From: a virus
UHGV virus genome: UHGV-0068637
Direction: 5' to 3' (one strand)
Length of the DNA stretch: 18,257 bases
Each line of letters begins with the position of its first letter. Positions within the stretch are counted from its first letter, which is position 1. A model generated the notes under the pieces. The model saw only the letters and a list, made by a program, of their open reading frames with translations. It did no database searches and had not been told where the DNA came from. A program made the position numbers and the translations under genes. Of the stretch, positions 3,185-16,615 are shown in pieces.

Positions 3185-3361
3185 CGCAATGACTCCATTA
3201 TGTTAATTAACGGAATAATTCTACCATTTTGTGATCTGTGTTGCATTTTCTGCTTACACAAAATGTATTTGTTGATCTGTGTCAATATACGAAATGTGGT
3301 TTTGTCGGATATTTAAGCCACCGGGTGAACCGGATTAACCAACAAGAATGAGGGTTCAAAA
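3185..3361. promoter_or_regulatory. Divergent intergenic control region between tail fibre (-) and lipoprotein (+) genes
   Basis: 177-bp non-coding gap. Contains a 9-bp inverted repeat CATTTTGTG (3225-3233) / CACAAAATG (3257-3265), a 10-bp direct repeat TGATCTGTGT (3232-3241 and 3273-3282), and a GAGGG Shine-Dalgarno 7 nt before the ATG at 3362. No exact -35/-10 pair could be fixed by eye. Confidence 0.4.
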
Positions 3362-3610
3362 ATGAAAAACGTGTTCAAAGTGGTTTTGTTCGCCACGGCT
3401 GTTGCTCTTACTGGTTGCGCTGTTGACAAGGAGGCTGCATTGCATAACCTGCCGAATAGCGGAGTGATTCCACAAGATGTCGTCTATGATGGCAGCGGTC
3501 ATCTTGTCTATGACACTGAAAAACTGCCGTATACTGGTCAATGGTGTCATGAACTTGATCACAATATGCGCCGCATCGGTAGCCCTTCTAACTGTGTAGC
3601 TAACTACTAA
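3362..3610 (+). CDS. Small secreted lipoprotein, Cor-like superinfection-exclusion candidate
   Basis: 82-aa ORF with a signal peptide and lipobox (MKNVFKVVLFATAVALTG|C), a good RBS, and an intrinsic terminator immediately downstream. It is opposite-strand to, and sandwiched between, the J-like gene and the tail fibre, the position where cor-type lipoprotein morons sit in phi80/N15/T1-like phages. The function is inferred from context only. Confidence 0.65.
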   Translation: MKNVFKVVLFATAVALTGCAVDKEAALHNLPNSGVIPQDVVYDGSGHLVYDTEKLPYTGQWCHELDHNMRRIGSPSNCVANY

Positions 3611-3613
3611 AAG

Positions 3614-3644
3614 AAAACCCCGCGCGAAGCGGGGTTGTTTTTTA
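3614..3644. terminator. Bidirectional rho-independent terminator (lipoprotein gene / J gene convergent)
   Basis: Hairpin CCCCGC-GCGAA-GCGGGG followed by TTGTTTTTT on the plus strand, with an A-run on the other side giving a T-tract on the minus strand. Lies between the convergent stops at 3610 (+) and 3642 (-). Confidence 0.75.
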
Positions 3645-6600
3645 TATCCATGTTCCTGAACTTCTTGTTATAAGTATTAAACCTGGTTTTCTTATTGCTG
3701 CATTAGATGTATTGGTAAAGTTTTCCGTCACCTCTACTGTAATTGTTGGGTATGTGAGGCCAGATACACAGTGCACCGCGACAGTTGACATTGCTGGGGT
3801 TGATGCTGGCCTTTCTATATTAATTGTTTTTTGGTGTCCGCTTATATTTATAGTTACATTGATGCGAGAAGATTCACTATATGTATAGTATGACAAATCA
3901 TACGGAATCATAACGTAAACTGTTTTTGATAAACTTGATGAACTTGAATCAAGATAAGTTTTCGAAACGCGCCTGCTGCCATTTCCCCTCATTGACGGAA
4001 ATACATCCTCGTTTATCACTGACATACTTGCTACGTCACCAACAAAACTTGTAGCTTCAACTGCTCCAGTAAATTTACCGCCAGTTGCGTAAACAGTACC
4101 GTTAAACACACCAGCATAAGCGTATACCGTACCCCTTACGGTTACCTGGTTAAATACTGCGTCACCGGCTTTATCTATCGCCCATCCTGTACCGTTTTCC
4201 CAGCTGTAATTAACTGACTGTATTCGATCAGCTATTTTGGCGGAGTTGATAGTTCCGTCCTTAATAAACGCTTCTCTTACATACATTGCGCCATTGGTGA
4301 CATAGAAAGGCGTTATATATGTGCCGTTTGCTTCCGTCATCAACACGAAGCGGTCAACAAGGAAGATACACTGCGACTGGAAGTTAGTACCATCACCAGT
4401 GAGGCCAAGCGACATACCTGTCGCGTACGTCTTGCCGTAGTTGTCGGTTGCCAGCTTGATAGAGTACGACGCATCAACATTGCCTTTGAAGTCGGTCAAT
4501 GCTTTGGATGTCGTTTCTATTGCCGTTTTATTCCCGTTAACGGTCACTGTTAGCTGATCGATTTTCGTTGATAACGCCTCGTCAGCCGTAGCCATCGCCT
4601 GCGACCATTCAGTGATACTTGCGTCTACCAGTTCGAAGGACGCTGAGATCTGGCTGAATTTTTCAGCGTTTGATTCCTCATGCGTAGCTAGTGCCGTTGA
4701 TACCTCAGATACTTTCGAGTTGATTTCACCGGTAAGCGATGCGCTAAGGCCGCTTATTGCGTCTGCGCGTGCTTTTGTTTCGTCGGCGATAGCCTTGTCC
4801 ATCCTGGTAATGTTGCTCGTTACCTTGCTGTCAAGCGTTGAGATTGATGCATTCACACCGCTGATTGCTTCGCCGCGTGCACTGGTTTCGTCCGCAATGG
4901 CTTTATCGAGGCGGTTAATGCTTGCTTCCGTTTTCTTATCAAGATCTGTGATAGATGCGTTCACACCACTAATGGCTTCCGCTGTTGCCTTTTTCTCTTC
5001 CGCCATAACCTTGTCAATGCGGTCGATTTTCGCATTGGCTTCCCTGATCCCTTTCTTGTATTTGGCTGAAAGGGCAACATGCGTGTTGGTCTGAGCGATT
5101 GAGTTATTGATAAGTGCAATCGAGGTATTCTGCATACTTGCTTTGGTCTGGTTGATTTCATCGCTGTTTTTCTCAACGTTGTTTTCAACCGCACCAAGTT
5201 CGGCGCTGATACCGGATATTGCCTGCGCACGGGCGCTTGACTCGTCGGCAATGGCCTGATCCAGGCGCTTGACGCTGGCGTTTGTGTTGTTCTCAAGCGT
5301 TGTTAAGTCTGCTTTGACCTCTGTTATTGCGTCACTTCTTGCCTTCGTTTCGTCTGATATTGCTTTATCAAGGCGGGAAACGCTGGCGTCTGTTTTCTTG
5401 TCAAGGGTGTCGATCGATGCCTTCACGCCACTGATGGCCTGTGCGCGTGCGCTGGCCTCGTCAGCGATTGCCTGGTCGAGTCTGTTCACCTCTGATTCAG
5501 TGTTGCCTTCAAGCGTGCTGATGCTTGCATTAACGCTGCTGATAGCGTCAGTGCGTGCCTTCGTTTCGTCTGCAATCGCTTTATCAAGGCGATTAACGTT
5601 ACTTGTTACCTTGCCGTCAAGTGTGGAGATTGATGCCTTCACACCATTGATGGCTTCGGTTCTCGCGCTCGTTTCGTCGGCAATAGCCTTATCAAGGCGG
5701 CTTATGCTTGAATCGGTTTTCTTATCAAGTGCTGATACTGAGGCGTTCACCCCATTGATAGCTTCTGAGCGTGCGCTTGTTTCGTCTGCAATAGCTTGAT
5801 CCAGACGTTTAACGCTGGCGTCTGTTTTCTTGTCAAGTGCTGAAATGCTTGCGTTAACGTCGCTGACAGCCTGGGTTCGTGCGCTCGATTCATCGGCGAT
5901 TGCCTGGTCCAGACGTTTAACGCTGGCGTCAGTTTTCTTGTCAAGATTGTCTATTGAGGCGTTCACACCGTTAATAGCTTCGGCGCGTGCGCTGGCCTCG
6001 TCAGCCACTGCACGTTCCACGCTAGAAATCTGACCTTTAAGGTTGGAATCCATCGTGTTCATTTCTGCCGTGATGGTTTCCAGTGATTCCGCTGTCGCTT
6101 TTTTCTCTTCAGCGATAACGTTGTCAATACGGTCAATTTCCGCTTTCGTTTCCGTCCTGCCTTTCTTATACTGGGCGGTAAGGGTTACGCGCGTGTTTGT
6201 CTGTGCAAGCGAGTTGTTGATAAGCGCCAATGAAGCGTTTTGCAGGCTTGCTTTTGCCTGTGCCAGTTCGCTGTCAACTTTTTCGCTTGACACTTCTAAT
6301 AAGTCGATTCTGGACTCATGCTGACCAATATCATCGGCGTTCTCTTTAACTTTTTTGTAGAGATCTTCCGTTTCTTTTTTAAGCGTATCGGTGTCAGCTT
6401 TTATTGTTCCTGTTTCCGTGATCAGATTGTCAGTGTCAGTCCTTAAATCTTCAGTTATGTTGTTCAGGTTGTCGGTTTCGGTCCTTAAATCTTCAGTTAC
6501 GCTGGTAAGGTTGTCAGTTGTAGTTTTGAGGCTGTCAGTAGCAGTTTTCAGTTCTTCCGTGACACCATCAATGACATCGGCGCGGTCGCCAAGATCTTTG

Positions 6601-9083
6601 ATGTCACTAATCATATCTTTGAACTGCTCAGACTCCATGACGTCCTTCATCACGTAGTCGCTGATTTCGTCGAAGTTTTCAGTCGGTTTACCTGATGCCT
6701 CAACGAAGTCTGACACACCAAAGGCATTGCGCGTGCGCACATAGACGTAATAGGTGCGGCCCGTGTTCATGCCGCCAAACGTCCACTGATAACCACGTCC
6801 GGTGTATTGTGCCTTAGTGGTCACTGATGCCGGATCTGTGATTTGATTTTCACCAGCGAAATAGAACTCATAACTAGTGTCAGTGGTGAGCGTTGTTCTG
6901 CTAATCGGGTAAACTGTGGCCTGAAATACACCAGGAACCCAGTTGACACCTATCGGGGCCGCTGGCGCACCAATAACCAGGTCCACAATGCTTTCCGCAC
7001 CCTTCATGCCCGTGTCGTTTCTGCCACGGATGCCTAACGAATAGGTTCCCGCATCAATGCCATAAAAATCATGGCTGTAATTAGTGGTTTCGTAGTATTT
7101 AACCACCGCTCCCGCTGTATTGTATACGCGGATCTCAAAGGTAAGACGATGAGTTGTTGTCATCGTTTCCCATGTTGCGCGACATTGAACCGTTTCGGAT
7201 CCAACGTTCATCACTTTCAGGTTTTCAATGTTAGGCACGCGGAAGTGATTGAGCGTGTCGTTGTTGACTTCAAAGACTGCACCTTCATCAACTACAGCCT
7301 GTTTGTGAGGATCGTGCTGTGCCGCCTCTATGGTGTACACGCTGTTGTTTTCAGTTTCCGCAACGCTGACGATTCGACATAACACGGGTTTAGCTGCGTC
7401 TGTTGACACGGCGAACACAGTACCGTTACGAATCCATGCAGGGGCGGATGCAAGGGTAATTTGGTTCACGTTAACACCAGTGATCTGATGTTTTTTAAAC
7501 TTGCCATCACTGTCAAGCAGGCTGATGGTATCACCAGGGGCGATATATTCAGAGTCAACATTATCTACAGTGATAACCCTGCCACTGTTTGCCACGATGC
7601 GACCGCCCAAACGAGCGCCTGCGCGGTTATTGTCGAGTATCTCGATAATATCACCAGGGGTGAAGTGAATCGCGTCACGGGCCATTTTAAACGTGAATTT
7701 TGAGGGTTCGCGTTTTGCTGTTTCTATCAGCCATTTGCCAGCGCGGTAAGCCTGCCCGCGTGACGTGCAACCAAAAGCCTCCAACGTGGTTTCGTTGTAA
7801 CCATCGCGGGCGATCAGTTCATCATCTGCTACGTATTCTTTTGATTGTTCCCAACCGTTTTCCGGGTCAGTCCATGACACAATCACAGCGTTGTAAGATT
7901 CCGCGCGGGCGATACTTGAACGAGTAAATGCGCCATCAACGACGTTTGCATTCGTGATGGTGGCAATTGGATCTTGCGGTGCATCAATCATCACCGTAAG
8001 GCGCTGCCCGTCCCATAACGCGATACCACGGAACATGCCTGCAATGTTGTCCAGCAAGTCGCGGGCGCTCATTTGCTCAGTGATGTAAGCGTTAAGCGTC
8101 ATGCGTGGTTCAAGGCCGCCGTAACCGTCGTTTACCAACTGGTCGCAGTATTGAGAAAGCACATATAATGCGCCATCATCAACGTCAATGTAACCGGCGT
8201 GGCGGGTAAGCCCGAAGCGTTCATTTTTCACCAGATACCGGAAAAGCCATGCAGGGTTGTTGGTGTATGCCTTTTTGAAGCCACCAAGCCATAAACCTGA
8301 GTATGTGCGTGTTTCCGGGTCGTAGTTATCAGGCACGTCAACAATCAGGCCGCGCATGTGATAGGTGCGTGTCGGCGTGTCGGTATACTGATCGTGGTCA
8401 ATTACCGCGCCTGCTACAGCGGTGTGAGGATAAGACAAGTTATCGTCTATTATCTCGCTGTAACTGCTCCACCTGGTGTCATTGCGAAGTAGATCGCTTT
8501 TACTGTCTGGCGTTACGCGACGAACGCGAATATCAAACGGTTTTTCATCCGGCGCTTGGATGATGTGCGCTTCCATATACTCGCCGCTTTGTTTACCAGG
8601 GCCAATGGTAATATCTTTGACTAGTGACCACGTTGTTGACGATGATGGCTTAACATCAACCATCAACACAACAGATGTATTGTATTGATTGCCCTTGTCA
8701 TCTGACTGAACCAGAGAATCAACGCCAAGATTCAGCCTTACGCGGTTAACGTTTGGATCTGAAACGGTCCTGATTATTGGCGTATCGTGAGTCACTTTTG
8801 CGTTAACAATAACGGTTGATTCAATGGCGTTGAAGCCGTTGATTGGTGACTGGTCAGCCGTACCATTACGCCACGCCACGCTAACGCCAGGGACCGATGT
8901 GCCGCCGTTGGCGTCAGTGATTGGGCTGTCATTAAGCATTACGCTGTTTAATGGCGCTTTCTGGTTTACAGGGCCGTAGATTGGGCCTTCGCTGAGAATG
9001 TCCAAAACACGATAAAACTGTTTATGAAACAGGTTATCGTTTAATAATGTTGGTGTTTTGGCTTTGCCGCCGCCGCTACTCAT
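3642..9083 (-). CDS. J: Host specificity / central tail fibre protein (lambda J family) with large coiled-coil repeat insertion
   Basis: 1813-aa ORF with AGGAGA RBS. The N-terminal ~800 aa is collinear with lambda J ('ILSEGPIYGPV', 'NPAWLFRYLV...RFGL', 'LSQYCDQLV.DG.GG.EPRMT.NAY', 'EAFGCTSRGQAYRAGKWLI'), followed by FN3-like segments. The C-terminal ~300 aa is a J-like receptor-binding region. About 650 aa of repeat-rich alpha-helical sequence sits in between. Confidence 0.9.
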   Translation of the reverse strand: MSSGGGKAKTPTLLNDNLFHKQFYRVLDILSEGPIYGPVNQKAPLNSVMLNDSPITDANGGTSVPGVSVAWRNGTADQSPINGFNAIESTVIVNAKVTHDTPIIRTVSDPNVNRVRLNLGVDSLVQSDDKGNQYNTSVVLMVDVKPSSSTTWSLVKDITIGPGKQSGEYMEAHIIQAPDEKPFDIRVRRVTPDSKSDLLRNDTRWSSYSEIIDDNLSYPHTAVAGAVIDHDQYTDTPTRTYHMRGLIVDVPDNYDPETRTYSGLWLGGFKKAYTNNPAWLFRYLVKNERFGLTRHAGYIDVDDGALYVLSQYCDQLVNDGYGGLEPRMTLNAYITEQMSARDLLDNIAGMFRGIALWDGQRLTVMIDAPQDPIATITNANVVDGAFTRSSIARAESYNAVIVSWTDPENGWEQSKEYVADDELIARDGYNETTLEAFGCTSRGQAYRAGKWLIETAKREPSKFTFKMARDAIHFTPGDIIEILDNNRAGARLGGRIVANSGRVITVDNVDSEYIAPGDTISLLDSDGKFKKHQITGVNVNQITLASAPAWIRNGTVFAVSTDAAKPVLCRIVSVAETENNSVYTIEAAQHDPHKQAVVDEGAVFEVNNDTLNHFRVPNIENLKVMNVGSETVQCRATWETMTTTHRLTFEIRVYNTAGAVVKYYETTNYSHDFYGIDAGTYSLGIRGRNDTGMKGAESIVDLVIGAPAAPIGVNWVPGVFQATVYPISRTTLTTDTSYEFYFAGENQITDPASVTTKAQYTGRGYQWTFGGMNTGRTYYVYVRTRNAFGVSDFVEASGKPTENFDEISDYVMKDVMESEQFKDMISDIKDLGDRADVIDGVTEELKTATDSLKTTTDNLTSVTEDLRTETDNLNNITEDLRTDTDNLITETGTIKADTDTLKKETEDLYKKVKENADDIGQHESRIDLLEVSSEKVDSELAQAKASLQNASLALINNSLAQTNTRVTLTAQYKKGRTETKAEIDRIDNVIAEEKKATAESLETITAEMNTMDSNLKGQISSVERAVADEASARAEAINGVNASIDNLDKKTDASVKRLDQAIADESSARTQAVSDVNASISALDKKTDASVKRLDQAIADETSARSEAINGVNASVSALDKKTDSSISRLDKAIADETSARTEAINGVKASISTLDGKVTSNVNRLDKAIADETKARTDAISSVNASISTLEGNTESEVNRLDQAIADEASARAQAISGVKASIDTLDKKTDASVSRLDKAISDETKARSDAITEVKADLTTLENNTNASVKRLDQAIADESSARAQAISGISAELGAVENNVEKNSDEINQTKASMQNTSIALINNSIAQTNTHVALSAKYKKGIREANAKIDRIDKVMAEEKKATAEAISGVNASITDLDKKTEASINRLDKAIADETSARGEAISGVNASISTLDSKVTSNITRMDKAIADETKARADAISGLSASLTGEINSKVSEVSTALATHEESNAEKFSQISASFELVDASITEWSQAMATADEALSTKIDQLTVTVNGNKTAIETTSKALTDFKGNVDASYSIKLATDNYGKTYATGMSLGLTGDGTNFQSQCIFLVDRFVLMTEANGTYITPFYVTNGAMYVREAFIKDGTINSAKIADRIQSVNYSWENGTGWAIDKAGDAVFNQVTVRGTVYAYAGVFNGTVYATGGKFTGAVEATSFVGDVASMSVINEDVFPSMRGNGSRRVSKTYLDSSSSSLSKTVYVMIPYDLSYYTYSESSRINVTINISGHQKTINIERPASTPAMSTVAVHCVSGLTYPTITVEVTENFTNTSNAAIRKPGLILITRSSGTWI
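4730..6040 (-). repeat. In-frame 108-bp tandem repeat array (about 10 copies, 36-aa unit) inside the J-like gene
   Basis: The motif 'tcaag...gcgcgtgcgctggcctcgtcagc' recurs with exact 540-bp (5 x 108) spacing, e.g. 5401 vs 5941 and 5451 vs 5991. The protein unit is 'DKKTDASVKRLDQAIADESSARTQAVSDVNASISAL' and variants. The array is split into two blocks (about 2.5 and about 7.5 copies) by a duplicated ~250-bp spacer segment. Confidence 0.85.
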
Positions 9084-9096
9084 GGTTTTTCTCCTG

Positions 9097-9627
9097 TTAA
9101 CTTACAACGTCAAGGGCGTCTCTGTTGTTGCTTGTGTCTATGCCTAACGACCCGACATTTGAACCTATTTTCATTTCACCCAACAGGATTGGCACTGGTC
9201 TACCCTGTCCTACTTTGTTCTCAATGCTGGTGTATGTGTTGTTAGATATGGTGTTATCTTGTGCGCTTTCTGCTGATGTTTTTATCTTCATGTTGCGTGA
9301 CATAAAGATCGAGAAAGCAACGCTAACAACAGAAACACCGATTAAAATCCAGCCTACAACGCCAATCCCAGCAATACCACCTTCCACCACTGGCGCAACA
9401 ATCACTGTAGTTCCGTCAGGGTATTTACTATTAACCGCTGCCGGGGCCGTCTTTTCGTCATAATCTTTTCCGGCAATTCGTAAGCGCAAAGGTGTATTTA
9501 AAAAAGCCTTCTTGAACTCCTGATCCTGCGCGGTCAATATGCTAAGTCCTTGCGCTGGCGTATCAACGTTTAAACACACCTTGCCGTAATATCTTCGAAG
9601 ATTGCCCGTAAATCTAAATTTGAGCAT
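9097..9627 (-). CDS. I: Tail assembly protein I-like
   Basis: 176-aa ORF overlapping the 3' end of the K-like gene, as in lambda. The C-terminal 'ISNNTYTSIENKVGQGRPVPILLGEMKIGSNV' matches the lambda I 'NTYFSSLDNMVAQGNVLPVLYGEMRVGSRV' region, and there is a hydrophobic central segment. Confidence 0.8.
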   Translation of the reverse strand: MLKFRFTGNLRRYYGKVCLNVDTPAQGLSILTAQDQEFKKAFLNTPLRLRIAGKDYDEKTAPAAVNSKYPDGTTVIVAPVVEGGIAGIGVVGWILIGVSVVSVAFSIFMSRNMKIKTSAESAQDNTISNNTYTSIENKVGQGRPVPILLGEMKIGSNVGSLGIDTSNNRDALDVVS

Positions 9628-10301
9628 TTGTCAGATCTCCATATTGAATTAGTCTGTCGAACATACGCGGGCCGCATTTGCTCGCGGCGGCTTAACAGTC
9701 CGGCATTGTCATGATGCAAAACAGTGTTGTCACCAAGGTAAATCATCGCGTGGCATGGATCTGCACCCTTAAACGGCTGACGAATAATCACATCACCAGG
9801 CTGAATACTTTGCGCGTCAACCATGAAAAACCCGTTCAATGGCAGGTTTTTTATGTACAGGTTTTCCCCACGCAGCCACCACCCATCGTGGCGCTCAAAG
9901 TCCGGCAGATCCACGCCGCAAAGGTGATAGGCGTCACGAAAAAGCGAGTAACAATCCGTTTTCCCGTGCTCAAATTTACGGCCCAACAGGTGCGCAACCG
10001 GGCGGAATTTTCTTACCATGCCACCGGAACACAAATACCACGGCAGGCCGGAAATAACCTGTTGCTGCCGATCCCGTGCTGACAATACCAACGAATCGTC
10101 AGTATGGGAGTGAAAAACGGCTGTTATAACGCCTAATTCGTCAGCTTTGATATAATCGTCAGGCGAGATTTTAAAGCTGTTGTGAGGCGTTTCAGACACG
10201 TTTAAACACGGGTAAAAATAATCGTTATCTATCACCAGCCCGCATACTTCCTCGTCAGGGTGGGCCGCTGCATAGCGAATCATTTTATCTTCAAGCGCCA
10301 T
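9570..10301 (-). CDS. K: Tail assembly protein K-like (MPN/JAB + NlpC/P60 domains)
   Basis: 'HPDEEVCGLV...HSH' (JAMM-like) followed by 'GKTDCYSLFRDAYH...QPGDVI...HAMIYLGDNTVLHH' (NlpC/P60-like), collinear with lambda K. Start chosen at the ATG at 10299-10301 (AAGGTGGG RBS) rather than the TTG at 10307 used by the ORF track. Confidence 0.85.
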   Translation of the reverse strand: MALEDKMIRYAAAHPDEEVCGLVIDNDYFYPCLNVSETPHNSFKISPDDYIKADELGVITAVFHSHTDDSLVLSARDRQQQVISGLPWYLCSGGMVRKFRPVAHLLGRKFEHGKTDCYSLFRDAYHLCGVDLPDFERHDGWWLRGENLYIKNLPLNGFFMVDAQSIQPGDVIIRQPFKGADPCHAMIYLGDNTVLHHDNAGLLSRREQMRPAYVRQTNSIWRSDKCSNLDLRAIFEDITARCV

Positions 10302-10303
10302 AA

Positions 10304-11008
10304 TCAACCCACCTTGCTGGATCCTGGGAAACAGGAAATTGGTAACGGATTAGGACGCGGAAAACGCAAACGGCAACCGCTCAGGCGGTGGCTGCATTTA
10401 TCCAGCTTCGGATCACTGGTTGGCTTGTCTTTGTCAGTAGCTACGGGGCCGCCACTGTATCTGCAACCGTCACCGCGATATTGCCACTGGCAAACGTCAG
10501 CGAGGATTGTGCGCCCAGGTATAACCGCTTTATCTGCATCAATTGGCGTTGACAGTTCATATTGCACCTGGTCCGCTGTTTCTTCGCTCATCGCTTCAAC
10601 GACGTAAAAAGATACAGCCTCAATAGATGGATCTGCATCCGGGTTGCCATTGGGGAAGTTGACGGCGTCCAGGTATTTTACTTCCACCTGGCGGCGTGTA
10701 ACCTTCATTCCTCGCAGATCGTTGAAATCGTTATTCATCCCAGTGATTAGGCCGCCAATGTTGGCTACGACCATTTGGGGGCGTGAGTAAACGCCTTCGT
10801 TTTTCATTTCGAAGCCAGTAGCCTCGATTGGGTAGCTGTTGTAAGCCAATCCCTTCCAGATAACCGGGCCGTAATAGCCATTCGCGCCGGAATGGAAGCG
10901 GATAACCTCGCCACCCAGGGGCGTCAGGTCCAGTTCAAATAAGTCAATGACCGCGCCGACTCCGGCATCCACGGAATCAATAATCATTTCTGTAGGTATG
11001 CTGCGCAT
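10304..11008 (-). CDS. L: Minor tail protein L-like
   Basis: 234-aa ORF with AAGGTGA RBS. 'VIDLFELDLTPLGGEV..F', 'GLAYNSYPIEATGFEMKNEG', 'KYLDAVNFPNGNP', 'ILADVCQWQYRGDGCRYSGGPVATD...DKCSHRLSGCRLRF' are collinear with lambda L including the Cys cluster. Confidence 0.85.
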   Translation of the reverse strand: MRSIPTEMIIDSVDAGVGAVIDLFELDLTPLGGEVIRFHSGANGYYGPVIWKGLAYNSYPIEATGFEMKNEGVYSRPQMVVANIGGLITGMNNDFNDLRGMKVTRRQVEVKYLDAVNFPNGNPDADPSIEAVSFYVVEAMSEETADQVQYELSTPIDADKAVIPGRTILADVCQWQYRGDGCRYSGGPVATDKDKPTSDPKLDKCSHRLSGCRLRFPRPNPLPISCFPGSSKVG

Positions 11009-11061
11009 TTTATCACCTTGTCATTTTGTGATCGCCATCACGCTAAATCATACCAAAACGG

Positions 11062-11093
11062 TTGATCGCGTTTTTTACAATATGTATATTGTA
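11062..11093 (+). promoter_or_regulatory. Candidate sigma70 promoter with palindromic operator for cassette A
   Basis: TTGATC (11062-11067), 17-bp spacer, TATATT (11085-11090). The perfect inverted repeat TACAATAT-gt-ATATTGTA (11076-11093) overlaps the -10. Confidence 0.4.
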
Positions 11094-11136
11094 CTCAAAA
11101 GGAAGCATGGTTAACAAAATGGCGCGGAGGTGTGAC

Positions 11137-11292
11137 ATGGCTGATAAGGTGTGGAGGTTGACGGTGTTCCTTAGTGATGGCAGGGAAATGACTGTGGCCC
11201 TGTATAAAGATGAAGGCGAGGCACTTACTGACGCGCTATTACTCGCTGAAGACGAACGCGTTTTGGGGTACAGGATCGAACCTGTCAAATGA
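11137..11292 (+). CDS. Hypothetical small acidic protein (cassette A, ORF1)
   Basis: 51-aa ORF, GGAGG 6 nt upstream of the ATG. First gene after the candidate promoter. No recognisable family. Confidence 0.5.
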   Translation: MADKVWRLTVFLSDGREMTVALYKDEGEALTDALLLAEDERVLGYRIEPVK

Positions 11293-11307
11293 GGGTTATA
11301 ACAAAAA

Positions 11308-11661
11308 ATGGAAAAATACAGATTAGACGTGTGGACTGATAAATACGAATGGGAACGCATGGGGCTATTTGATACATATGAATCAGCGTGTGATGAAGGT
11401 AGTGAATTACTGCGCTGTTGGTCTAATGCTCGTTATTATTATGTTGTTCCAGTACAAGTACCGGATAAGGTGGAAGAGATGAACCCGAAAGATATTAACT
11501 TTAACGTCAATGTTGAATTTGCAGACTCTATGGATCAGGCTTGCCCTGGTGAAATACACGCAAAAGGTTTTCCGGCTGACGATCCAGAAGCAAAACGAGA
11601 ATACGAAAAAGCGGCAAAAGACTTCTGCATAGATAACCTGGGCTGTTTTAATGGCAAATAA
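11308..11661 (+). CDS. Hypothetical acidic Cys-containing protein (cassette A, ORF2)
   Basis: 117-aa ORF with protein-like composition, whereas the antisense frames are Phe/Cys/Ile-rich junk. Lies in an AT-rich region. RBS is weak. Confidence 0.55.
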   Translation: MEKYRLDVWTDKYEWERMGLFDTYESACDEGSELLRCWSNARYYYVVPVQVPDKVEEMNPKDINFNVNVEFADSMDQACPGEIHAKGFPADDPEAKREYEKAAKDFCIDNLGCFNGK

Positions 11662-11676
11662 ATAGTAGGCCAATAT

Positions 11677-11916
11677 ATGAAAATGATTGGTATTATAAAA
11701 CTCGTTGTTACATCTAACAAAAGGGAGGATTTTAATATAAAAGATAGATACCCATTATTCAAAACATCTTCTGGCAATTATTTTACTGTTGACAACTGTT
11801 TAAACTTTGTTCCGCTGACTGTGCTTGATATTTCTGGAGCAAGGGTGAAAGGGTACGGAACTGCTTGCGGTGATGATTTTGTGCCTGATATGCTATTTTT
11901 TGAAACGTGGGAATAA
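11677..11916 (+). CDS. Hypothetical protein (cassette A, ORF3)
   Basis: 79-aa ORF, weak RBS, start could be 11677 or 11683. No recognisable family. Confidence 0.45.
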   Translation: MKMIGIIKLVVTSNKREDFNIKDRYPLFKTSSGNYFTVDNCLNFVPLTVLDISGARVKGYGTACGDDFVPDMLFFETWE

Positions 11917-11921
11917 AAATC

Positions 11922-12188
11922 ATGGGGCGGCGCAATCACGGTGATTATGTGTACACGTTGAAACAGGCCGCCCGCCTCATCGGTTATCATGAGCACGAAT
12001 TTATTAATTTGCTGATTGAGCGCGGGATACTTTACCAGGTCTGTTTAACGCTGTACCCGAAAGCTAAATACCTACAGGAAAAGTTATTCATCATCATGAC
12101 GGATGAAAACCAGGTCAATCACTCATTCGTCACTGATAAAGGTGTCAACTATCTGCGCGATAACTTACAGGGCGGCAATTATGGATAA
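11922..12188 (+). CDS. Putative small helix-turn-helix DNA-binding protein (cassette A, ORF4)
   Basis: About 89 aa from the ATG at 11922 (the ORF track uses GTG at 11907). The N-terminal 'YTLKQAARLIGYHEHEFINLLIERGIL' has the pattern of an HTH recognition unit (excisionase / AlpA / MerR-like). Confidence 0.5.
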   Translation: MGRRNHGDYVYTLKQAARLIGYHEHEFINLLIERGILYQVCLTLYPKAKYLQEKLFIIMTDENQVNHSFVTDKGVNYLRDNLQGGNYG

Positions 12189-12252
12189 GGTTATCGAAAA
12201 TGTTTTGGTAGTGGCTGGCGCAATTGCCATCGTTTATGCCTTTATGAACTAA
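12181..12252 (+). CDS. Possible 23-aa hydrophobic peptide (cassette A, ORF5)
   Basis: MDKVIENVLVVAGAIAIVYAFMN. Overlaps the stop of ORF4. Very short and hand-called, so it may not be translated. Confidence 0.3.
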   Translation: MDKVIENVLVVAGAIAIVYAFMN

Positions 12253-12263
12253 TGGGGTGAATC

Positions 12264-12401
12264 ATGAAAATCGAAGTTTTAGCACTGATTGTAATGGGCT
12301 TGATTGTCTTCGGTGTTCACGCTGCTGGTTGGGACTGGGCGGCAATAGCAAACAACATGGCGCACGCTCACCCAATGAGTTTGCTGTATATTCACTACTA
12401 A
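12264..12401 (+). CDS. Small single-pass membrane peptide (cassette A, ORF6)
   Basis: 45-aa ORF, GGGGTGA RBS 4 nt upstream. The N-terminus 'IEVLALIVMGLIVFGV' is hydrophobic. A terminator follows directly. Confidence 0.45.
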   Translation: MKIEVLALIVMGLIVFGVHAAGWDWAAIANNMAHAHPMSLLYIHY

Positions 12402-12403
12402 CA

Positions 12404-12440
12404 AGAAAAACCCCGCGCGAAGCGGGGTTGTTATTATACG
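12404..12440. terminator. Bidirectional rho-independent terminator (near-identical copy of the 3614-3644 hairpin)
   Basis: CCCCGCGCGAAGCGGGGTTGTT is identical to 3618-3639. There are A/T runs on both sides, between the convergent stops at 12401 (+) and 12434 (-). Confidence 0.7.
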
Positions 12441-12631
12441 CCATCAACCAAAAATAAAACCTCCTTGCCTTCCCTGGATCTGCATCCCACATACCCGTCA
12501 CCAACATCATGAAGATACCAGGTATCGCCATTGTCAGCCTTTACAGTAAGGTCGTTGATCTCATAGTCGTCAAACAATGTAAAAGCGTCAGTTTTGTCAA
12601 CTACACAAGTCCCGTACATAACAACCTCCAT
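12434..12631 (-). CDS. Hypothetical 65-aa protein translationally coupled to M
   Basis: Its ATG (12629-12631) overlaps the TAA of the M-like gene (TAATG arrangement). Same strand as the tail genes, followed by a terminator. No recognisable family. Confidence 0.45.
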   Translation of the reverse strand: MEVVMYGTCVVDKTDAFTLFDDYEINDLTVKADNGDTWYLHDVGDGYVGCRSREGKEVLFLVDGV

Positions 12632-12984
12632 TAGCCAACAACTTGTTCAAACGTTGCGTTTAGCGTGTACACAGGCCCGTCCTTAGTCATACTCCAGCTA
12701 CGGCAAACAAAAAGCCTTTGCACGCCATCCATAGACGGCGACCAGTAAAAAGCCTCGACAGCGCCGCGCGCCCTCAAGAATGCTTCTGCCTGGATCGCCA
12801 CGTTTCCACCATCACCGCATCCTGCGCTACTGCCTTTAAAAACCAGGGTGTATTTATCAAGTAATGTGTTAATCCCTTTCGCCTGGCGCTGTTCATATCC
12901 ATCACCAAGTTTAATGACTGACACATTTGGTTCCCTGGTCACGCTGTAGCTTCTTTGTGGCGTCCATTTGAAAACTTCAGGCAT
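12631..12984 (-). CDS. M: Minor tail protein M-like
   Basis: 117-aa ORF with GGGGGA RBS. 'KLGDGYEQRQAKGIN', 'FYWSPSMDG', and the C-terminal 'TLNATFEQVVG' match lambda M ('RFGDGYSQRAPAGLN', 'FLWTPPYE', 'EFSAEFEQVVN'). Confidence 0.85.
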   Translation of the reverse strand: MPEVFKWTPQRSYSVTREPNVSVIKLGDGYEQRQAKGINTLLDKYTLVFKGSSAGCGDGGNVAIQAEAFLRARGAVEAFYWSPSMDGVQRLFVCRSWSMTKDGPVYTLNATFEQVVG

Positions 12985-13073
12985 GATTCCCCCTATAAGT
13001 TACATATTGCATACATCTTTACGCGCTTCTACGCGAAAAATTAGAACTTCGTCACAAGAATTATACCCAGTTT

Positions 13074-13112
13074 ACAAAATGGCTTCACACAGGACGTAAC
13101 AAGATGTATATA
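13074..13112 (+). promoter_or_regulatory. Candidate promoter for cassette B carrying the conserved ACAAAATGGCTTCAC motif
   Basis: ACAAAATGGCTTCAC at 13074-13088 is identical to 16293-16307. -35-like TTCACA (13084-13089), 17-bp spacer, -10-like TATATA (13107-13112). Confidence 0.35.
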
Positions 13113-13154
13113 GGAAGCAAGAAGAGAAAGCAGTACCAACAAAGGAGGGGCATC

Positions 13155-13310
13155 ATGAAACGCTATGTAGTGGTAATGCTGAACAACGCATTCGAACAGG
13201 TGGAAGTAGCGATCGTTAAAGGCTTCGATGACGCATTCAAATACGGTCAATTCATGATGAATGCAAAAGAAGATGAATACCGTGATTTCTTCCTGAAAGT
13301 GGTCAGCTAA
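13155..13310 (+). CDS. Hypothetical small protein (cassette B, ORF1)
   Basis: 51-aa ORF with a very strong RBS (AAAGGAGGGG) 4 nt before the ATG. No recognisable family. Confidence 0.55.
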   Translation: MKRYVVVMLNNAFEQVEVAIVKGFDDAFKYGQFMMNAKEDEYRDFFLKVVS

Positions 13311-13328
13311 TGGATTGTGGGGTGGGTT

Positions 13329-13583
13329 ATGAAATTGGTGGCGATTGGTAAAAACCTGAAAGCACAGAAAAACGCACAGGACCGGATCATCAAAAAGGGC
13401 AAGGCCTTATTAAACGCTTTCCTGAAAAAAGAGGCCAACCCCAAAAAATTACGCGATGGCTACGGTTATAAATTTGACATCAACCCCGATTGGCGGTTAT
13501 TCAGCGAAGATCTAAAGATGTGGTTAATTATTGACCATCTGGAATACAACCGCCACTGTGGAGTAAAAGGGGCGCATAAATGA
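13329..13583 (+). CDS. Hypothetical lysine-rich basic protein (cassette B, ORF2)
   Basis: 84 aa from the ATG at 13329 (the ORF track uses GTG at 13317). GGGGTGGG upstream. The N-terminal half is highly basic. Confidence 0.5.
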   Translation: MKLVAIGKNLKAQKNAQDRIIKKGKALLNAFLKKEANPKKLRDGYGYKFDINPDWRLFSEDLKMWLIIDHLEYNRHCGVKGAHK

Positions 13584-13591
13584 GGTGAAAT

Positions 13592-13684
13592 ATGGATGAC
13601 GATAAATTCACCTGGCGGGAGATCTGGAGCATCTGGCAGGTGATGTTTGCTCGCAGCTATATAGCAAGAAACGGAAGATTGTGA
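13592..13684 (+). CDS. Possible 30-aa peptide (cassette B, ORF3)
   Basis: MDDDKFTWREIWSIWQVMFARSYIARNGRL. GAGGTGA RBS that overlaps the ORF2 stop. Short and hand-called. Confidence 0.35.
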   Translation: MDDDKFTWREIWSIWQVMFARSYIARNGRL

Positions 13685-13702
13685 TTTGCGGAGGAAAATA
13701 AA

Positions 13703-13879
13703 ATGAAAAACCCGGCAAATAAAAGCAACGTAAAACGTATGGCGTGGGTGCTAAAATATATGGATAGTAAAGGGGATACATATACATGCCCATTTTTCAG
13801 GTATACTGACGCGGTATTTGCCAGAAGTGTACACGGAGGGAAAATTGAAAGAGGGTATACAAGTTTTGAGAATAACTAA
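13703..13879 (+). CDS. Hypothetical 58-aa protein (cassette B, ORF4)
   Basis: GGAGG RBS 8 nt upstream. Followed directly by a terminator. Confidence 0.5.
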   Translation: MKNPANKSNVKRMAWVLKYMDSKGDTYTCPFFRYTDAVFARSVHGGKIERGYTSFENN

Positions 13880-13884
13880 AAGAT

Positions 13885-13918
13885 AACCCCGGCATTGTAC
13901 CGGGGTTTTGTTTATTTG
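13885..13918. terminator. Bidirectional rho-independent terminator (cassette B / H gene convergent)
   Basis: Hairpin AACCCCGG-CATTGTA-CCGGGGTT followed by TTTTGTTTATTT. On the minus strand a T-rich tract follows the stem. Directly abuts the H stop at 13912-13914. Confidence 0.75.
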
Positions 13919-16251
13919 CGGCGAGGTTGCAACATTCCGCCAGGTCGTTGCGATTCCCTTGCCATCATTTTCATTGCTACGCGTTCCATTGTCTGTTCAA
14001 GCCTGCGACCGTCTTCGTCGCTAAATCCGTTTGTGGTCTGTACGGTGATGTTAACAGGCATATTGATGCCGCCACCATTGAAGAGATCGCGGCCAGGAAT
14101 AACCCTGCCATTTTCCCCAGGAATCATATACTGACGCCCGTTGCTCGTCTGGAATAACTCAGGAATCCCGTGTTCCCCTACGCGATACAGACTTCCACCA
14201 TTAACAGAACCACCATTATAACGTCCGCCGCCAAAAATTGACGTTGCCAGCGACATGATCGCAGAAAGTGCCGCAGCACCAGCCGCCGCCCAGCTACCAC
14301 CAGTTGACGCAGCCGTTGCCGCAGCCGCCGGGGCCGCCGCCGCAGCAATCTGACCTTGCGCCGCCACCGCGCCAGCCGTTGTACTTGCCTGGGTAGCCTT
14401 GCTTTGCGTTTCCATCATCAACTGATCTGCTATCCAGTTGGCGGCAATTTCTGATAGTTTGTTGCCAACGGTGTTAAGTATGCTACTTCCCAGGTTAGCA
14501 AAAACCTCGCTTAGTGATTGAGTACCGTTCAACAGGCCGGTAAGCGCATTACCCATGCCACCTTTTAGGCCACTGACACAAGCGCCGATCAGGCCGTTTG
14601 TGTCGCTCTGTGCCTGCCATTGTTCCCATTTCAGATCTCGGATCTGTTGCTCGTATTCCAATTGCGCCTGTCTCTGTTGCGCCTCTGTAGCGCCCAGGTC
14701 CAATAGCATTTGTTTTCTTACAGCCCATTCATTTTGCGCCTGCTTGATTGGGTCAATTTCTCCCTTAAGCTGGTCCATCGGGCTAACTATGTGGTCCCAT
14801 TTGTCGCGTAGCTCATCAACAGGGATCTGAGCTAATTCGTCTTTCAGTTCCTTGCCTATTCCTTTTTGCGCGGCCTTGTACTCAAGGAGGGTTATTTTGC
14901 CCTGGGCGAATGCAGCATCAATGGCCTTGCCGTTCTCCAGCGCTTTACGCATGGCGGCGGCGTCCTTGTTGTACTGGTCGGACACTTTTATACCTTCATC
15001 ACCAAGCCGATCAGCTTCGGATTTCTTTTGTTTTTTAGGTTTTTTCGGCTTACCAACTGGCTGATCGAATCCTGTGATCTTGCCATCGTCAGCCTCACCC
15101 TGTTTCTCCATGAACTCATCATATGCGGCGGTTGCGTTTTTAATGTCGTTTGCAAACGTCATTACTTTGCCAACGGTAGGGCCAAATTTCTTCTCGTTGT
15201 TGCTGTTTAGCTCTTCTTTGCGTTTGTCTACGATCTCCTTCATCCATTTGTAGCCATCCATTAGCGCCTTGATTGGCGTCACCATCCTGATGATTTCTTC
15301 CGCCACCTCGCCAGCTTTAACAGCAACATCGTCAAATATGTCGATGAACTCGCTACCAGCGGTTTTCAGTGTATTGAAACAGGTTGCGGCGAATTTTGCG
15401 CCTTTACCCAATCCCTCAACGCCACCAGTGATTAAGTCTATTGCTGTAACAACGCCGTCAGATATGCCGAAAAGATTATCAAGCTCTTCGACAACGCCCA
15501 TCATCTCAACTTTAAGCTCGTTGAAGGCTATGCCTGTTGTGCGCGGCAATTGTGCGAACTTCTCGTTTGTTTCCTGCGTGGAGGCCTGGATCGCGTTGAG
15601 CATCCTTTCAGCCGTGATCTTACCGTCCAGCATTTCAGCGCGGAACTGACCCATAGATAACCCCATTTGGCGGGCCATTTCCTGTACGATTGTTGGGGTA
15701 TTGTCGCGTATTGAGTTAAATTCTTCCGCCTGCAACACGCCAGCATCAATAGCCTGGCGGAACTGGCGCATGGAGTTAGATAACTGTTCCGCAGACACGC
15801 CGCCCAGACTACCAAGTTTTTGTAGCGTGCTAACCAGGTTGAGCACCTGGCCTTCCGTAGCGGATGTATTTTTTAGCGATATAGCAAGCCCTTGCCACAG
15901 GTCGCCAGTATCCTTGAGGCTTTGGCCTGTTTCTTTTGATATATCTTTCAGTCTGTTGAAAACACGTTCCGTGGCCTCCGCTTCACCTGTGAGCAGTTTG
16001 ATTTTTACGCGAAGCATTTTTGCTTGCTCCGCCATGTCAATAAACTGGCGCACAGCCTCCGCAGCAAGTAATAGATGGATAACCCTGGACAGTGCTTTGA
16101 TTGAAGTCTTAAGCGTGTTTACCTGGCGGTCAGCGCGTTTTGCGCCACGCTCGATGCTGTCAAATGCCTGGTCTGCCTGTCGTTGAGCAACGAGAAGTTG
16201 ACCAGTTTTTGCATCAACTTCGTAATAGATTGTACCTAAACTGGTTGCCAT
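13912..16251 (-). CDS. H: Tail length tape-measure protein (H-like)
   Basis: 779-aa ORF with GAGGT RBS. The N-terminal two-thirds is alpha-helical and rich in charged residues. There is a Gly/Ala-rich hydrophobic stretch near the C-terminus (AAQGQIAAAAAPAAAATAAS...SIFGGG) and a terminal 'GGSLYRVGEHGIPELF' region like lambda H. It sits directly upstream of M. Confidence 0.85.
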   Translation of the reverse strand: MATSLGTIYYEVDAKTGQLLVAQRQADQAFDSIERGAKRADRQVNTLKTSIKALSRVIHLLLAAEAVRQFIDMAEQAKMLRVKIKLLTGEAEATERVFNRLKDISKETGQSLKDTGDLWQGLAISLKNTSATEGQVLNLVSTLQKLGSLGGVSAEQLSNSMRQFRQAIDAGVLQAEEFNSIRDNTPTIVQEMARQMGLSMGQFRAEMLDGKITAERMLNAIQASTQETNEKFAQLPRTTGIAFNELKVEMMGVVEELDNLFGISDGVVTAIDLITGGVEGLGKGAKFAATCFNTLKTAGSEFIDIFDDVAVKAGEVAEEIIRMVTPIKALMDGYKWMKEIVDKRKEELNSNNEKKFGPTVGKVMTFANDIKNATAAYDEFMEKQGEADDGKITGFDQPVGKPKKPKKQKKSEADRLGDEGIKVSDQYNKDAAAMRKALENGKAIDAAFAQGKITLLEYKAAQKGIGKELKDELAQIPVDELRDKWDHIVSPMDQLKGEIDPIKQAQNEWAVRKQMLLDLGATEAQQRQAQLEYEQQIRDLKWEQWQAQSDTNGLIGACVSGLKGGMGNALTGLLNGTQSLSEVFANLGSSILNTVGNKLSEIAANWIADQLMMETQSKATQASTTAGAVAAQGQIAAAAAPAAAATAASTGGSWAAAGAAALSAIMSLATSIFGGGRYNGGSVNGGSLYRVGEHGIPELFQTSNGRQYMIPGENGRVIPGRDLFNGGGINMPVNITVQTTNGFSDEDGRRLEQTMERVAMKMMARESQRPGGMLQPRRK

Positions 16252-16289
16252 GATTTAACCTCATGAAAGTGTGATCTAGATCTCTATTC

Positions 16290-16331
16290 TATACAAAATG
16301 GCTTCACTTCAACGTATACATTTTGTATAAA
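16290..16331 (+). promoter_or_regulatory. Candidate promoter/operator for cassette C with conserved motif and 11-bp inverted repeat
   Basis: TATACAAAATG (16290-16300) and CATTTTGTATA (16319-16329) form an inverted repeat. ACAAAATGGCTTCAC at 16293-16307. -35-like TTCACT (16303-16308), 17-bp spacer, -10-like TATAAA (16326-16331). The palindrome GATCTAGATC lies just upstream (16273-16282). Confidence 0.35.
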
Positions 16332-16407
16332 GAAGTCAAAGGAAAGGGATTGAGCGAATGGATTCAGAAGGCCGGATGAACCGGAGGAAGCAAAAGAGGA
16401 TAAGAAA

Positions 16408-16494
16408 ATGAAAAACTACTACCGACCCAACGAGCATGAGCGTTATGCCGACTTCATCGAAGAAATGCTGAAAGCACTTAAAAACAAGAAATAA
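16408..16494 (+). CDS. Possible 28-aa peptide (cassette C, ORF1)
   Basis: MKNYYRPNEHERYADFIEEMLKALKNKK. AGAGGA RBS. A 17-aa upstream mini-ORF (16358-16411) overlaps its start. Confidence 0.35.
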   Translation: MKNYYRPNEHERYADFIEEMLKALKNKK

Positions 16495-16507
16495 ACGGGT
16501 TGGGTAA

Positions 16508-16615
16508 ATGGACACAATCAAAACGTTTATAGATGTATATATTACAGCATGGTTAGCATTTAATGTGATGGCTGTGCTAGTGCTGGCAATGACAACCGAA
16601 GATAAACGTAATTAA
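16508..16615 (+). CDS. Possible 35-aa membrane peptide (cassette C, ORF2)
   Basis: MDTIKTFIDVYITAWLAFNVMAVLVLAMTTEDKRN, with one hydrophobic helix. Its stop overlaps the next ATG (TAATG). Confidence 0.35.
   Translation: MDTIKTFIDVYITAWLAFNVMAVLVLAMTTEDKRN

Follow-up and report, generated by a model that had tools for sequence, protein, structure and literature searches.

Why does one short word recur in every intergenic region of a phage tail operon at which genes of opposite strand diverge? The question is raised by an 18,257-nt stretch of the virus genome UHGV-0068637, the whole of which we call the window: four rightward cassettes (A to D) are set among its leftward tail genes, and the region in front of each carries the 8-nt word ACAAAATG or CATTTTGT. 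An original prediction, made from the letters of this DNA, had read the recurrence as a promoter/operator vocabulary shared by the opposite-strand control regions. We tentatively favor a related reading, to which we give a probability of about 45%: the words would be conserved parts of four partly paralogous promoter regions of inserted accessory genes (morons), read by host sigma-70 RNA polymerase. The signal is previously undescribed, yet of a fairly ordinary kind among phage regulatory signals; within the searchable literature, no relevant paper mentions the words.

By megablast, the window is the tail region of a temperate, Nus-dependent, non-lambdoid coliphage of the mEp021 group (mEpimmI). 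The top matches, mEp554, mEp044, mEp010, and mEp021, are 88–90% identical over 69–76% of the window, with mEp554 first (90% identity, 76% of the window covered). We took the annotation from seven GenBank relatives.

The word is concentrated in four divergent intergenic regions

The regions in question are the following, together 631 bp, or 3.5% of the window, with 38% G+C:

3185-3361, between divergent genes: IG1, in front of cassette A
11009-11136, between divergent genes: IG2, in front of cassette B
12985-13154, between divergent genes: IG3, in front of cassette C
16252-16407, between divergent genes: IG4, in front of cassette D

The word ACAAAATG occurs eight times in the window against 1.64 copies expected, a count reached by none of 200 shuffles of the window. 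Seven of the eight copies lie inside IG1–IG4, where dinucleotide shuffles gave a mean of 0.086 copies and 0 of 5000 reached seven. It is the commonest 8-mer of these regions and the sole one found in all four; no shuffle produced any such 8-mer. When one mismatch is allowed, IG1–IG4 hold 14 copies (22 per kb, vs 0.9 per kb elsewhere), and the enrichment stays extreme if the two predicted promoters P_C and P_D described below are counted once. Each of the eight transcription units flanking IG1–IG4 has one sense-oriented copy upstream.

The word is also kept at the same places in about 37 loci of the group, namely seven GenBank phages and 30 loci from IMG/VR. Its density is 3–9 per 10 kb in all 30 IMG/VR loci and at background in 50 more distant relatives (0–1.6 per 10 kb, median 0). 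In alignments of 24–32 unique orthologous sequences per region, bases nearby vary freely (one neighboring spacer has 13 variants) while the word is invariant, and on these alignments we conclude that the words are under purifying selection. The claim that the motif marks every opposite-strand control region thus holds for all four regions of the window. It is not specific to them, since the word also occupies 13 intergenic segments of mEp021, including both sides of the repressor gene.

One word in several registers

The word family comprises several elements rather than one motif, and the same 8-mer stands in at least four registers: upstream of a -35 hexamer, abutting a -10 hexamer, at the flank of a CRP-like half-site, and in a 5' untranslated region or leftward -35. 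The copies that bear on promoters are these:

3258-3271, plus strand: ACAAAATG TATTTG, the IG1 copy, of the -10-proximal type, flanked by the CRP-like site and the FNR-like site
11052-11090, plus strand: predicted promoter P_B, with CCAAAACGG, -35 TTGATC (11062-11067), a 17-nt spacer ending in ACAATATG, and -10 TATATT (11085-11090)
11076-11093, strand not assigned: perfect 18-bp palindrome TACAATATGTATATTGTA, spanning the P_B spacer and -10
11114-11121, plus strand: ACAAAATG copy 15 nt ahead of the cassette B start codon, within the leader; read on the opposite strand, it overlaps the predicted leftward -35 TTGTTA
13074-13088, plus strand: 15-mer ACAAAATGGCTTCAC of predicted promoter P_C, an exact match; CAAAATGG at -44 to -37, then the first 5 nt of TTCACA (13084-13089)
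13099-13112, plus strand: ACAAGATG TATATA, a -10-proximal word variant (one-mismatch copy) and the P_C -10
16293-16307, plus strand: 15-mer ACAAAATGGCTTCAC of predicted promoter P_D, an exact match; the word, then the first 5 nt of TTCACT (16303-16308)
16319-16331, plus strand: CATTTTG TATAAA, the 3' end of the spacer and the P_D -10; right arm of a 17-nt inverted repeat

The positions on which the original prediction rested were all correct: both copies of ACAAAATGGCTTCAC, CATTTTGTGATC at 3225-3236 and 11022-11033, ACAAAATG at 3258, TACAATATGTATATTGTA, and TATACAAAATG and CATTTTGTATA within 16290-16329, as were the hexamer pairs TTCACA-17-TATATA and TTCACT-17-TATAAA. Its idea of a shared vocabulary is borne out to the extent that the words are conserved and lie beside promoter-like hexamers; it merged several distinct elements, and it overlooked the CRP-like and FNR-like sites and the distribution of the word over the genome.

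In the first register (class U), CAAAATGG lies 0–1 nt upstream of the -35 in three predicted sigma-70 promoters, P_B, P_C, and P_D, where the word takes the form CAAAA(T/C)GG. The layouts are TACAAAATGG-C-TTCACA-17-TATATA for P_C, TACAAAATGG-C-TTCACT-17-TATAAA for P_D, and, in the window, CCAAAACGG-TTGATC-17-TATATT for P_B, which becomes CCAAAATGG-A-TTGATC in 21 of 33 loci. The order of word, gap, -35, 17 nt, and -10 is kept in 33 (P_B), 26 (P_C), and 35 (P_D) loci, and the 17-nt spacing of TTGATC/TATATT, TTCACA/TATATA, and TTCACT/TATAAA is conserved in all of them. P_B scored 9 of 12 in a consensus scan; 21 loci read CCAAAATGGA-TTGATC and 10 read CCAAAACGG-TTGATC. The P_C word and -35 are kept in 26 loci with minor variants (ACGAAATGG). 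In P_D, none of 32 unique orthologues departs from TACAAAATG, whereas the -35 takes several forms (TTCACT, TTTACT, TTCATT, or TTTATT).

The position of class U is in register with that of the proximal subsite of an UP element, which Estrem et al. (1999) reportedly defined as AAAAAARNR at -46 to -38. The strong phage promoters T7 A1 and T5 N25 have A-tracts at -43, and in rrnB P1 one base separates the UP element from the -35. Here, too, ACAAAATGG is followed by one base and then the -35, in P_C, P_D, most P_B orthologues, and the early promoter of mEp021; its A-tract covers -43 to -40, and it fits six of the eight specified positions of the proximal consensus. What sets the word apart from an UP subsite is that conservation is as strong at the C and the TGG as over the A-tract, that the -35 varies more than the word does, and that further copies stand in other registers. 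In the proposed mechanism, each moron would be transcribed from its own promoter region by the host sigma-70 polymerase, and CAAAA(T/C)GG would serve as a docking tract for the C-terminal domain of the polymerase alpha subunit, placed in P_B, P_C, and P_D between an upstream CRP-like site and the -35.

The second register (class T) is a block ACA-N3-TG, or more exactly ACAWNWTG, directly abutting a -10 of the form TATAWW. We would class ACA-W-N-W-TG as a -10-abutting element with four members: ACAATATG followed by TATATT (P_B), ACAAGATG by TATATA (P_C), ACATTTTG by TATAAA (P_D), and ACAAAATG by TATTTG (IG1). The P_D copy reads as CATTTTGT because ACAAAATGT and ACATTTTGT are reverse complements. 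In P_C, TGTATA is invariant and the last two bases of the -10 are TA or CA; the P_D -10 is TATAAA, TATAAG, or TATAGA. The IG1 copy at 3258 is conserved, as TATACAAAATGTATTTA in most relatives.

The fourth register is the 11114 copy in the cassette B leader, which would overlap the -35 of a predicted leftward promoter. This copy is invariant in 28 unique sequences, and in some relatives its ATG starts a different first gene. The leftward promoter would use TTGTTA (11117-11112), an 18-nt spacer, and TACAAT, the -10 given by the right half of TACAATATGTATATTGTA. That palindrome is conserved except at 11091, where G and T alternate; either base leaves a -10 on each strand (TACAAT or TAAAAT). With TATATT and TACAAT on opposite strands, 11076-11117 may act as a bidirectional promoter of symmetric build, whose predicted starts are some 16 bp from each other, or equally as an operator. 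Bidirectional promoters reportedly arise from sequence symmetry (Warman et al., 2021), and IG3 and IG4 have mirrored -10-like boxes as well; unlike in such promoters, the leftward -35 is poor in IG3 and IG4, and the late genes are expected to use a Q-modified polymerase without need of internal promoters. On the minus strand of IG3, facing the M-like gene, we also noticed a perfect TATAAT (13060-13065) that is invariant in 31 unique orthologues amid variable flanks; its -35 (GTGAAG) coincides with that of P_C on the other strand.

CRP-like and FNR-like sites

The third register (class C) is CATTTTGTGATC at 3225-3236 and 11022-11033, which consists of a T-rich flank and TGTGATC, the left half of a CRP-like palindrome. 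We scored CRP and FNR sites by mismatches to the consensus, without a curated matrix. At a limit of two mismatches, every region contains a single match to TGTGA-N6-TCACA, and these four of the window's 14 such matches fall in 3.5% of its sequence:

3225-3245, plus strand: CATTTTG flank and CRP-like TGTGA TCTGTG TTGCA (3230-3245); half-sites kept and N6 varying in 24 orthologues
11022-11042, plus strand: CATTTTG flank and CRP-like TGTGA TCGCCA TCACG (11027-11042); one mismatch to the consensus
13041-13056, plus strand: CRP-like TTAGA ACTTCG TCACA; TGAGA in most relatives; center 35.5 bp from the P_C -35
16270-16285, plus strand: CRP-like TGTGA TCTAGA TCTCT; left half invariant; center 25.5 bp from the P_D -35
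3272-3313, plus strand: predicted promoter P_A of the lipoprotein cassette, with FNR-like TTGAT CTGT GTCAA (3272-3285), 22 nt, and -10 GATATT (3308-3313)

All four sites have one or two mismatches, conserved half-sites, and free spacers, the weak right half in IG4 apart. Across the orthologues, 9 of 40 half-site columns vary, compared with 19 of 24 spacer columns (Fisher p = 1.7e-5). In IG2, 13 different spacers occur among 28 unique sequences, TGTGA and TCACG are invariant, and the CATTTTG flank is not conserved. The distance from the CRP-like center to the -35 is constant within each promoter family: 27.5 or 28.5 bp for P_B, 35.5 bp for P_C, and 25.5 bp for P_D. If transcription starts 7 nt after the predicted -10, the centers lie at -82.5, -62.5, -70.5, and -60.5 in IG1–IG4, close to the positions found in class I and class III CRP promoters. 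They likewise come near the -61.5, -71.5, and -82.5, and the FNR-like site to the -41.5, of the class I, II, and III CRP- and FNR-dependent promoters reportedly reviewed by Busby and Ebright (1999), again counted from predicted starts; unlike in those, one CRP-like site here has a poor right half. CRP would be expected to read one such site per region, and the cassettes plausibly share regulation because each control region has one.

The FNR-like site matches nine of the ten half-site positions of TTGAT-N4-ATCAA in the window and all ten in most relatives, among which N4 differs. GATATT, or GATACT in relatives with a different downstream cassette, lies exactly 22 nt 3' of it. This is the class II geometry (-41.5 from the predicted start), by which the center of the IG1 CRP-like site falls at -82.5. 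The arrangement predicts anaerobic, FNR-dependent expression of the exclusion-lipoprotein gene. Both IG1 sites are missing in two relatives without cassette A, which ties them to cassette A and not to the fiber gene. In the same two relatives (L010, 19324-19436; L036, 12338-12417) a perfect 15-bp palindrome (TATACATTATGTATA in L010) comes immediately after the J terminator, and the word stands instead at the ribosome-binding site of the fiber gene (AACAAAATGGAGTC).

The presence, enrichment, conservation, paralogy, and geometry of these elements were observed directly, as was the contrast of half-sites and spacers; that they make up active host-type promoters with the predicted starts, bound by CRP, FNR, and the alpha C-terminal domain, we infer. 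Several observations weigh against that reading. In about 60 orthologous copies, the -10 of P_C (TATATA or TATACA) and of P_D never has T at -7, and the consensus scan called neither promoter; without this critical T the boxes are atypical and probably depend on an activator. Where the -35 varies the word does not, a constancy tighter than expected of a degenerate, A/T-rich UP subsite. In IG4, both arms of a 17-nt inverted repeat are nearly invariant. One 8-mer in four registers is unparsimonious, the right half of the IG4 CRP-like site is weak and variable, and our CRP and FNR scores rest on consensus mismatches. The complete mEp021 genome adds two further points: a direct repeat, ACAAAATGGTATGACT and ACAAAATGGATTGACT, flanks its repressor gene, and the word is its top intergenic 8-mer with no convincing promoter found at copies 2379, 6066, 11173, and 20079.

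Word copies across the mEp021 genome

The original prediction was to fall if the motif did not exceed expectation in intergenic DNA genome-wide. On the complete relative mEp021 (L008), it passed: 16 of 17 copies lie in the intergenic 12.4% of the genome, spread over 13 segments, and one lies in coding DNA. The word is the commonest intergenic 8-mer of mEp021, and the four 8-mers ranked after it are overlapping shifts of it; from these top 8-mers emerges the 12-nt consensus T(A/T)TACAAAATG(G/T). Copies at 11173 and 11928 stand on either side of the repressor gene. Downstream of that gene lies an early promoter (11929-11966) that reads TATACAAAATGG-A-TTGACT-17-TATATT and is preceded by AGAAAATTTTTTAAAAAAG. 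The control regions to the two sides of this gene share, as their best direct repeat, ACAAAATGGTATGACT and ACAAAATGGATTGACT; the repeat is identical to the P_D sequence at 14 of 16 positions. Four of the 16 intergenic copies (2379, 6066, 16543, and 20144) are antisense to the local genes.

Such a distribution could also mean that T(A/T)TACAAAATG(G/T) is the site of a dedicated DNA-binding protein, whether phage-encoded (Rep021, the Cro-like gp14, or another core protein) or a host factor. This protein would join the repressor-gene promoters and all moron promoters in one regulon, as an activator acting from about -42 or as a repressor where the word overlaps the -10. We hold this to be less probable than host promoters, and doubtful as it stands; it stays a live alternative because the word is more conserved than the adjoining -35. 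The intergenic abundance in mEp021, from which the 12-mer emerged, the repeat beside the repressor gene with its likeness to P_D, the conserved inverted repeat around the IG4 -35 and spacer, the occurrence of several copies per region in both orientations, and a word distribution that matches a single-immunity phage group would all be explained. In IG4, the left arm of that repeat is 16284-16300 and 15 of 17 positions pair; the invariant blocks among 32 unique sequences are TGTGAT, TCTATT(C/T)TATACAAAATG (16283-16300), and the nearly invariant CATTTTGTATA (16319-16329). The site, however, is asymmetric, whereas CI-like repressors bind palindromes; its copies are irregularly spaced (10, 29, 32, 67, and 92 bp) and vary in position relative to promoters; some are start-codon contexts (mEp021 34020 and 43736; window 11006 and 16403); the IG2a copy is not conserved; and no candidate protein could be tied to the word. 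To our knowledge, no Escherichia coli factor has a consensus that fits it. In mEp021 10861-11217, neither Rep021 operators nor a convincing leftward early promoter was located, and promoters and operators are absent from the one paper on the group, which covers nut sites, att sites, and lipoboxes (PMC11893012).

The more specific proposal, that a group-specific protein, possibly Rep021 acting from about -42, couples the repressor-gene promoters to all tail-operon morons, we regard as unlikely. Lambda CI acts from about -42 at P_RM. Repeated intergenic words are also known from the stoperators of Cluster A mycobacteriophages and the start-associated sequences of Cluster K. Like a stoperator, the short asymmetric word here stands in many intergenic regions of one phage group, including the immunity region beside the repressor gene, and is rare in coding DNA; unlike stoperators and start-associated sequences, it has no consistent orientation to transcription, as the four antisense mEp021 copies show, and no fixed distance to start codons.

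Beyond these copies, the mEp021 early promoter, taken as 11906-11966, combines an rrnB-like A/T-rich upstream region with the word. A paralogous block, AAAATTTTTTA...ACAAAATGGTATGACT, lies just upstream of the repressor start codon (11137-11188) and has no recognizable -10. Between gp25 and gp26 (16520-16575), a word copy stands beside a CRP-like site and a lone TGTGATC half-site; the sequence is ACAAAATGTATATTTATGTGATCGCAATCACG and, on the other side of the word and the opposite strand, TTGTGATCGCATATCC.

Shared descent of the control regions

The recurrence might instead be mainly a legacy of descent, in which promoter, leader, and terminator modules were duplicated, the patches persist as homology for cassette exchange, and the 8-mer has no function. 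Parts of this are well founded. IG3 and IG4 align over about 60 nt across P_C and P_D (score 40); 28 nt of IG1 (3248-3275) match the reverse complement of IG4 16307-16334 (score 30); and the leaders of IG1 and IG4 align with a score of 27 and share CCGGNTGAACCGG between cassettes A and D. Each score lies above all of 300 shuffles. Further shared modules are found in the leaders and at the cassette ends:

3321-3333, plus strand: leader hairpin CCGGGTGAACCGG of cassette A
16372-16384, plus strand: paralogous leader hairpin CCGGATGAACCGG of cassette D
3616-3636, both strands: bidirectional terminator at the end of cassette A
12409-12429, both strands: identical hairpin at the end of cassette B

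The end module of cassettes A and B extends over about 45 nt (3602-3646 vs 12393-12438) and includes the last codons (ACTACTAA) as well as the hairpin AACCCCGCGCGAAGCGGGGTT. By these alignments, the control regions are partly paralogous and appear as mosaics of related modules. The identical 15-mer in P_C and P_D is therefore part of a longer alignment and would reflect duplication of the whole promoter.

The significant paralogy and the shared terminator module would suit a legacy of descent. So would the stop of IG1 homology right after ACAAAATGTAT between relatives with different cassettes, and the highly variable cassette content behind constant promoter regions. As the main cause of the recurrence, though, descent seems improbable: save for P_C and P_D, the copies share only 8–12 nt amid unrelated flanks, the word is invariant amid freely varying neutral positions, and its enrichment does not depend on counting P_C and P_D separately. 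The proposal that the cassettes are co-regulated or arose by one recombination or insertion mechanism fared unevenly as well. Co-regulation is plausible and descent is shared, and we found no insertion-site or target-duplication signature, in that the terminator ends of the cassettes have no copies of the word. Apart from this, the leader hairpin of A and D, CCGG(G/A)TGAACCGG, lies in a 27-nt similar stretch, and the cassette A copy would be at the extreme 5' end of the predicted transcript.

RNA-level roles and other candidates

A role in RNA looks poorer still. Here ACAAAAUG 5' of the Shine-Dalgarno sequence would be an unstructured, A-rich translation enhancer, perhaps serving late genes that restart translation after a long antisense cassette, or the inverted copies would form hairpins in late transcripts. 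One sense copy does lie 13–107 nt before the start codon of each unit (stf, L, M in relatives, the tape measure gene, A, B, C, and D), those of L, B, and M are directly 5' of the Shine-Dalgarno sequence, and in IG4 the two arms pair as a 13-bp stem (z = -2.3 and -2.5). These z-scores are modest, however: 2–7 of 200 shuffled sequences form equally good folds, and z is -0.9 for the plus strand of IG1; being invariant, the arms offer no covariation; and an Rfam scan of the whole window gave no matches. The P_C and P_D copies, moreover, lie upstream of the predicted starts, and a quarter of the mEp021 intergenic copies (4 of 16) are antisense.

A switch sensitive to Dam methylation through GATC sites embedded in the words, as the original prediction had raised, is hardly credible: GATC is denser in IG1–IG4 (9.5 per kb, vs 4.6 per kb overall) and the phage group encodes adenine methyltransferases, but only six sites are present there, all within TGTGATC, TTGATC, or a variable CRP spacer; IG3 has none, the second IG4 GATC and the IG1 TTGATC are not conserved, most ACAAAATG copies are free of GATC, and conserved GATCs inside regulator sites of the pap/agn43 type are not seen. 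Those that are conserved lie only within the TGTGATC of a CRP-like core and the TTGATC -35, and to judge from the alignments the embedded GATCs are by-products of these two.

Several other identities were tried and rejected. Read as a -10 hexamer, the CAAAAT in the word has an acceptable -35 at 16–18 bp only for the P_C copy (GTCACA-18-CAAAAT, by manual check). If all copies were the end of a spacer and a -10 (CATTTTG directly followed by TAnnnn) firing in the CATTTTGT direction, most would lack a -35 and five would continue with TG or TT; the pattern does fit P_D, the leftward TATACA-16-TATACT of mEp021, and 20144. By-eye comparison, made without a database, found a fit of a few bases at most for promoters of sigma-54, -E, -28, -32, and -S and for sites of IHF, LexA, OmpR, ArcA, TyrR, EvgA, the GadE box, and dif/Xer.

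The cassettes and their neighborhood

The genes around the four regions are, in order:

38-3184, minus strand: side tail fiber gene (stf)
3362-3610, plus strand: cassette A, a lipoprotein
3642-9083, minus strand: J, a J-like host-specificity gene
ending at 11008, minus strand: I, K, and L
11137-12401, plus strand: cassette B, which contains a KilAC-domain protein
12434-12984, minus strand: a small gene and an M-like minor tail gene
13155-13879, plus strand: cassette C, a ParE-like toxin preceded by a 51-aa open reading frame (ORF)
13912-16251, minus strand: tape measure gene, followed by a 239-aa gene and the major tail gene, also on the minus strand
16408-16929, plus strand: cassette D

Lambdoid morons in late operons (HK97 and HK022; lambda bor and lom) are reportedly units of promoter, gene, and terminator (Juhala et al. 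2000; Hendrix et al. 2000). The cassettes here resemble them as small accessory genes between conserved tail genes, with a promoter-like region in front and a hairpin terminator behind, and with contents typical of lysogenic conversion or defense (an exclusion lipoprotein, a toxin–antitoxin pair, and a KilAC protein). A terminator scan found a hairpin followed by T residues at all four cassette ends; the promoters are predicted, P_B at 9 of 12 and P_C and P_D without T at -7. The gap between the tape measure and M genes is mostly 0–57 nt in distant relatives (M protein 66–71% identical), so the cassettes are insertions, that is, morons. Cassette A is absent from two relatives, and cassette content differs among close relatives while the promoter regions stay constant. 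Distant relatives that do have a moron at the tape-measure/M junction use other promoters, free of the word. Unlike lambdoid morons, four counter-oriented cassettes fill almost every gap of one tail operon here, and their control regions are paralogous, with a common word that is also found in the early region. The annotation of mEp021 includes a Q-type late regulator; antiterminated polymerase therefore probably transcribes the late genes through the cassettes.

The lipoprotein at the position of cassette A in mEp010 (gp116, "Lpp010") excludes superinfecting phages, an effect seen when this homologue is expressed from a plasmid (PMC11893012). In cassette C (13155-13583), the 51-aa ORF precedes an 84-aa protein with a ParE-like toxin domain (Pfam PF24732, E = 7e-12), and the two look like a toxin–antitoxin pair. 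Small genes of no assigned function are also among the contents of the cassettes.

The definition of the mEpimmI phages dates only from 2025, and they are described as prevalent in the human gut; we found the prophage in 16 of 5426 complete E. coli genomes, and we know of no published start-site map for any of the strains listed. Our analysis offers a testable map of probable prophage expression of the four cassettes, with host-type promoters, CRP-like sites, and an FNR-like site at the exclusion gene, and CRP and FNR input, if real, would tie phage defense to the carbon and oxygen status of the gut. Its value is practical rather than conceptual, as morons with their own promoters and control by host factors are established ideas. 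A group-specific 12-nt word, for its part, dominates the intergenic DNA of the phage. Should a group-specific protein bind it, the lysogeny circuit of the prophage would switch exclusion, toxin–antitoxin, and other accessory genes on top of CRP and FNR; coliphages would then have an analogue of the mycobacteriophage stoperator network, though one of activating geometry.

Apart from the control regions, the J-like gene contains, at 5617-5993 and 6422-6548, 108-nt (36-aa) tandem repeats (3.5 copies, 73% match) as well as 42-nt and 21-nt repeats, and the length of J ranges widely among relatives, from 4.2 to 5.5 kb.

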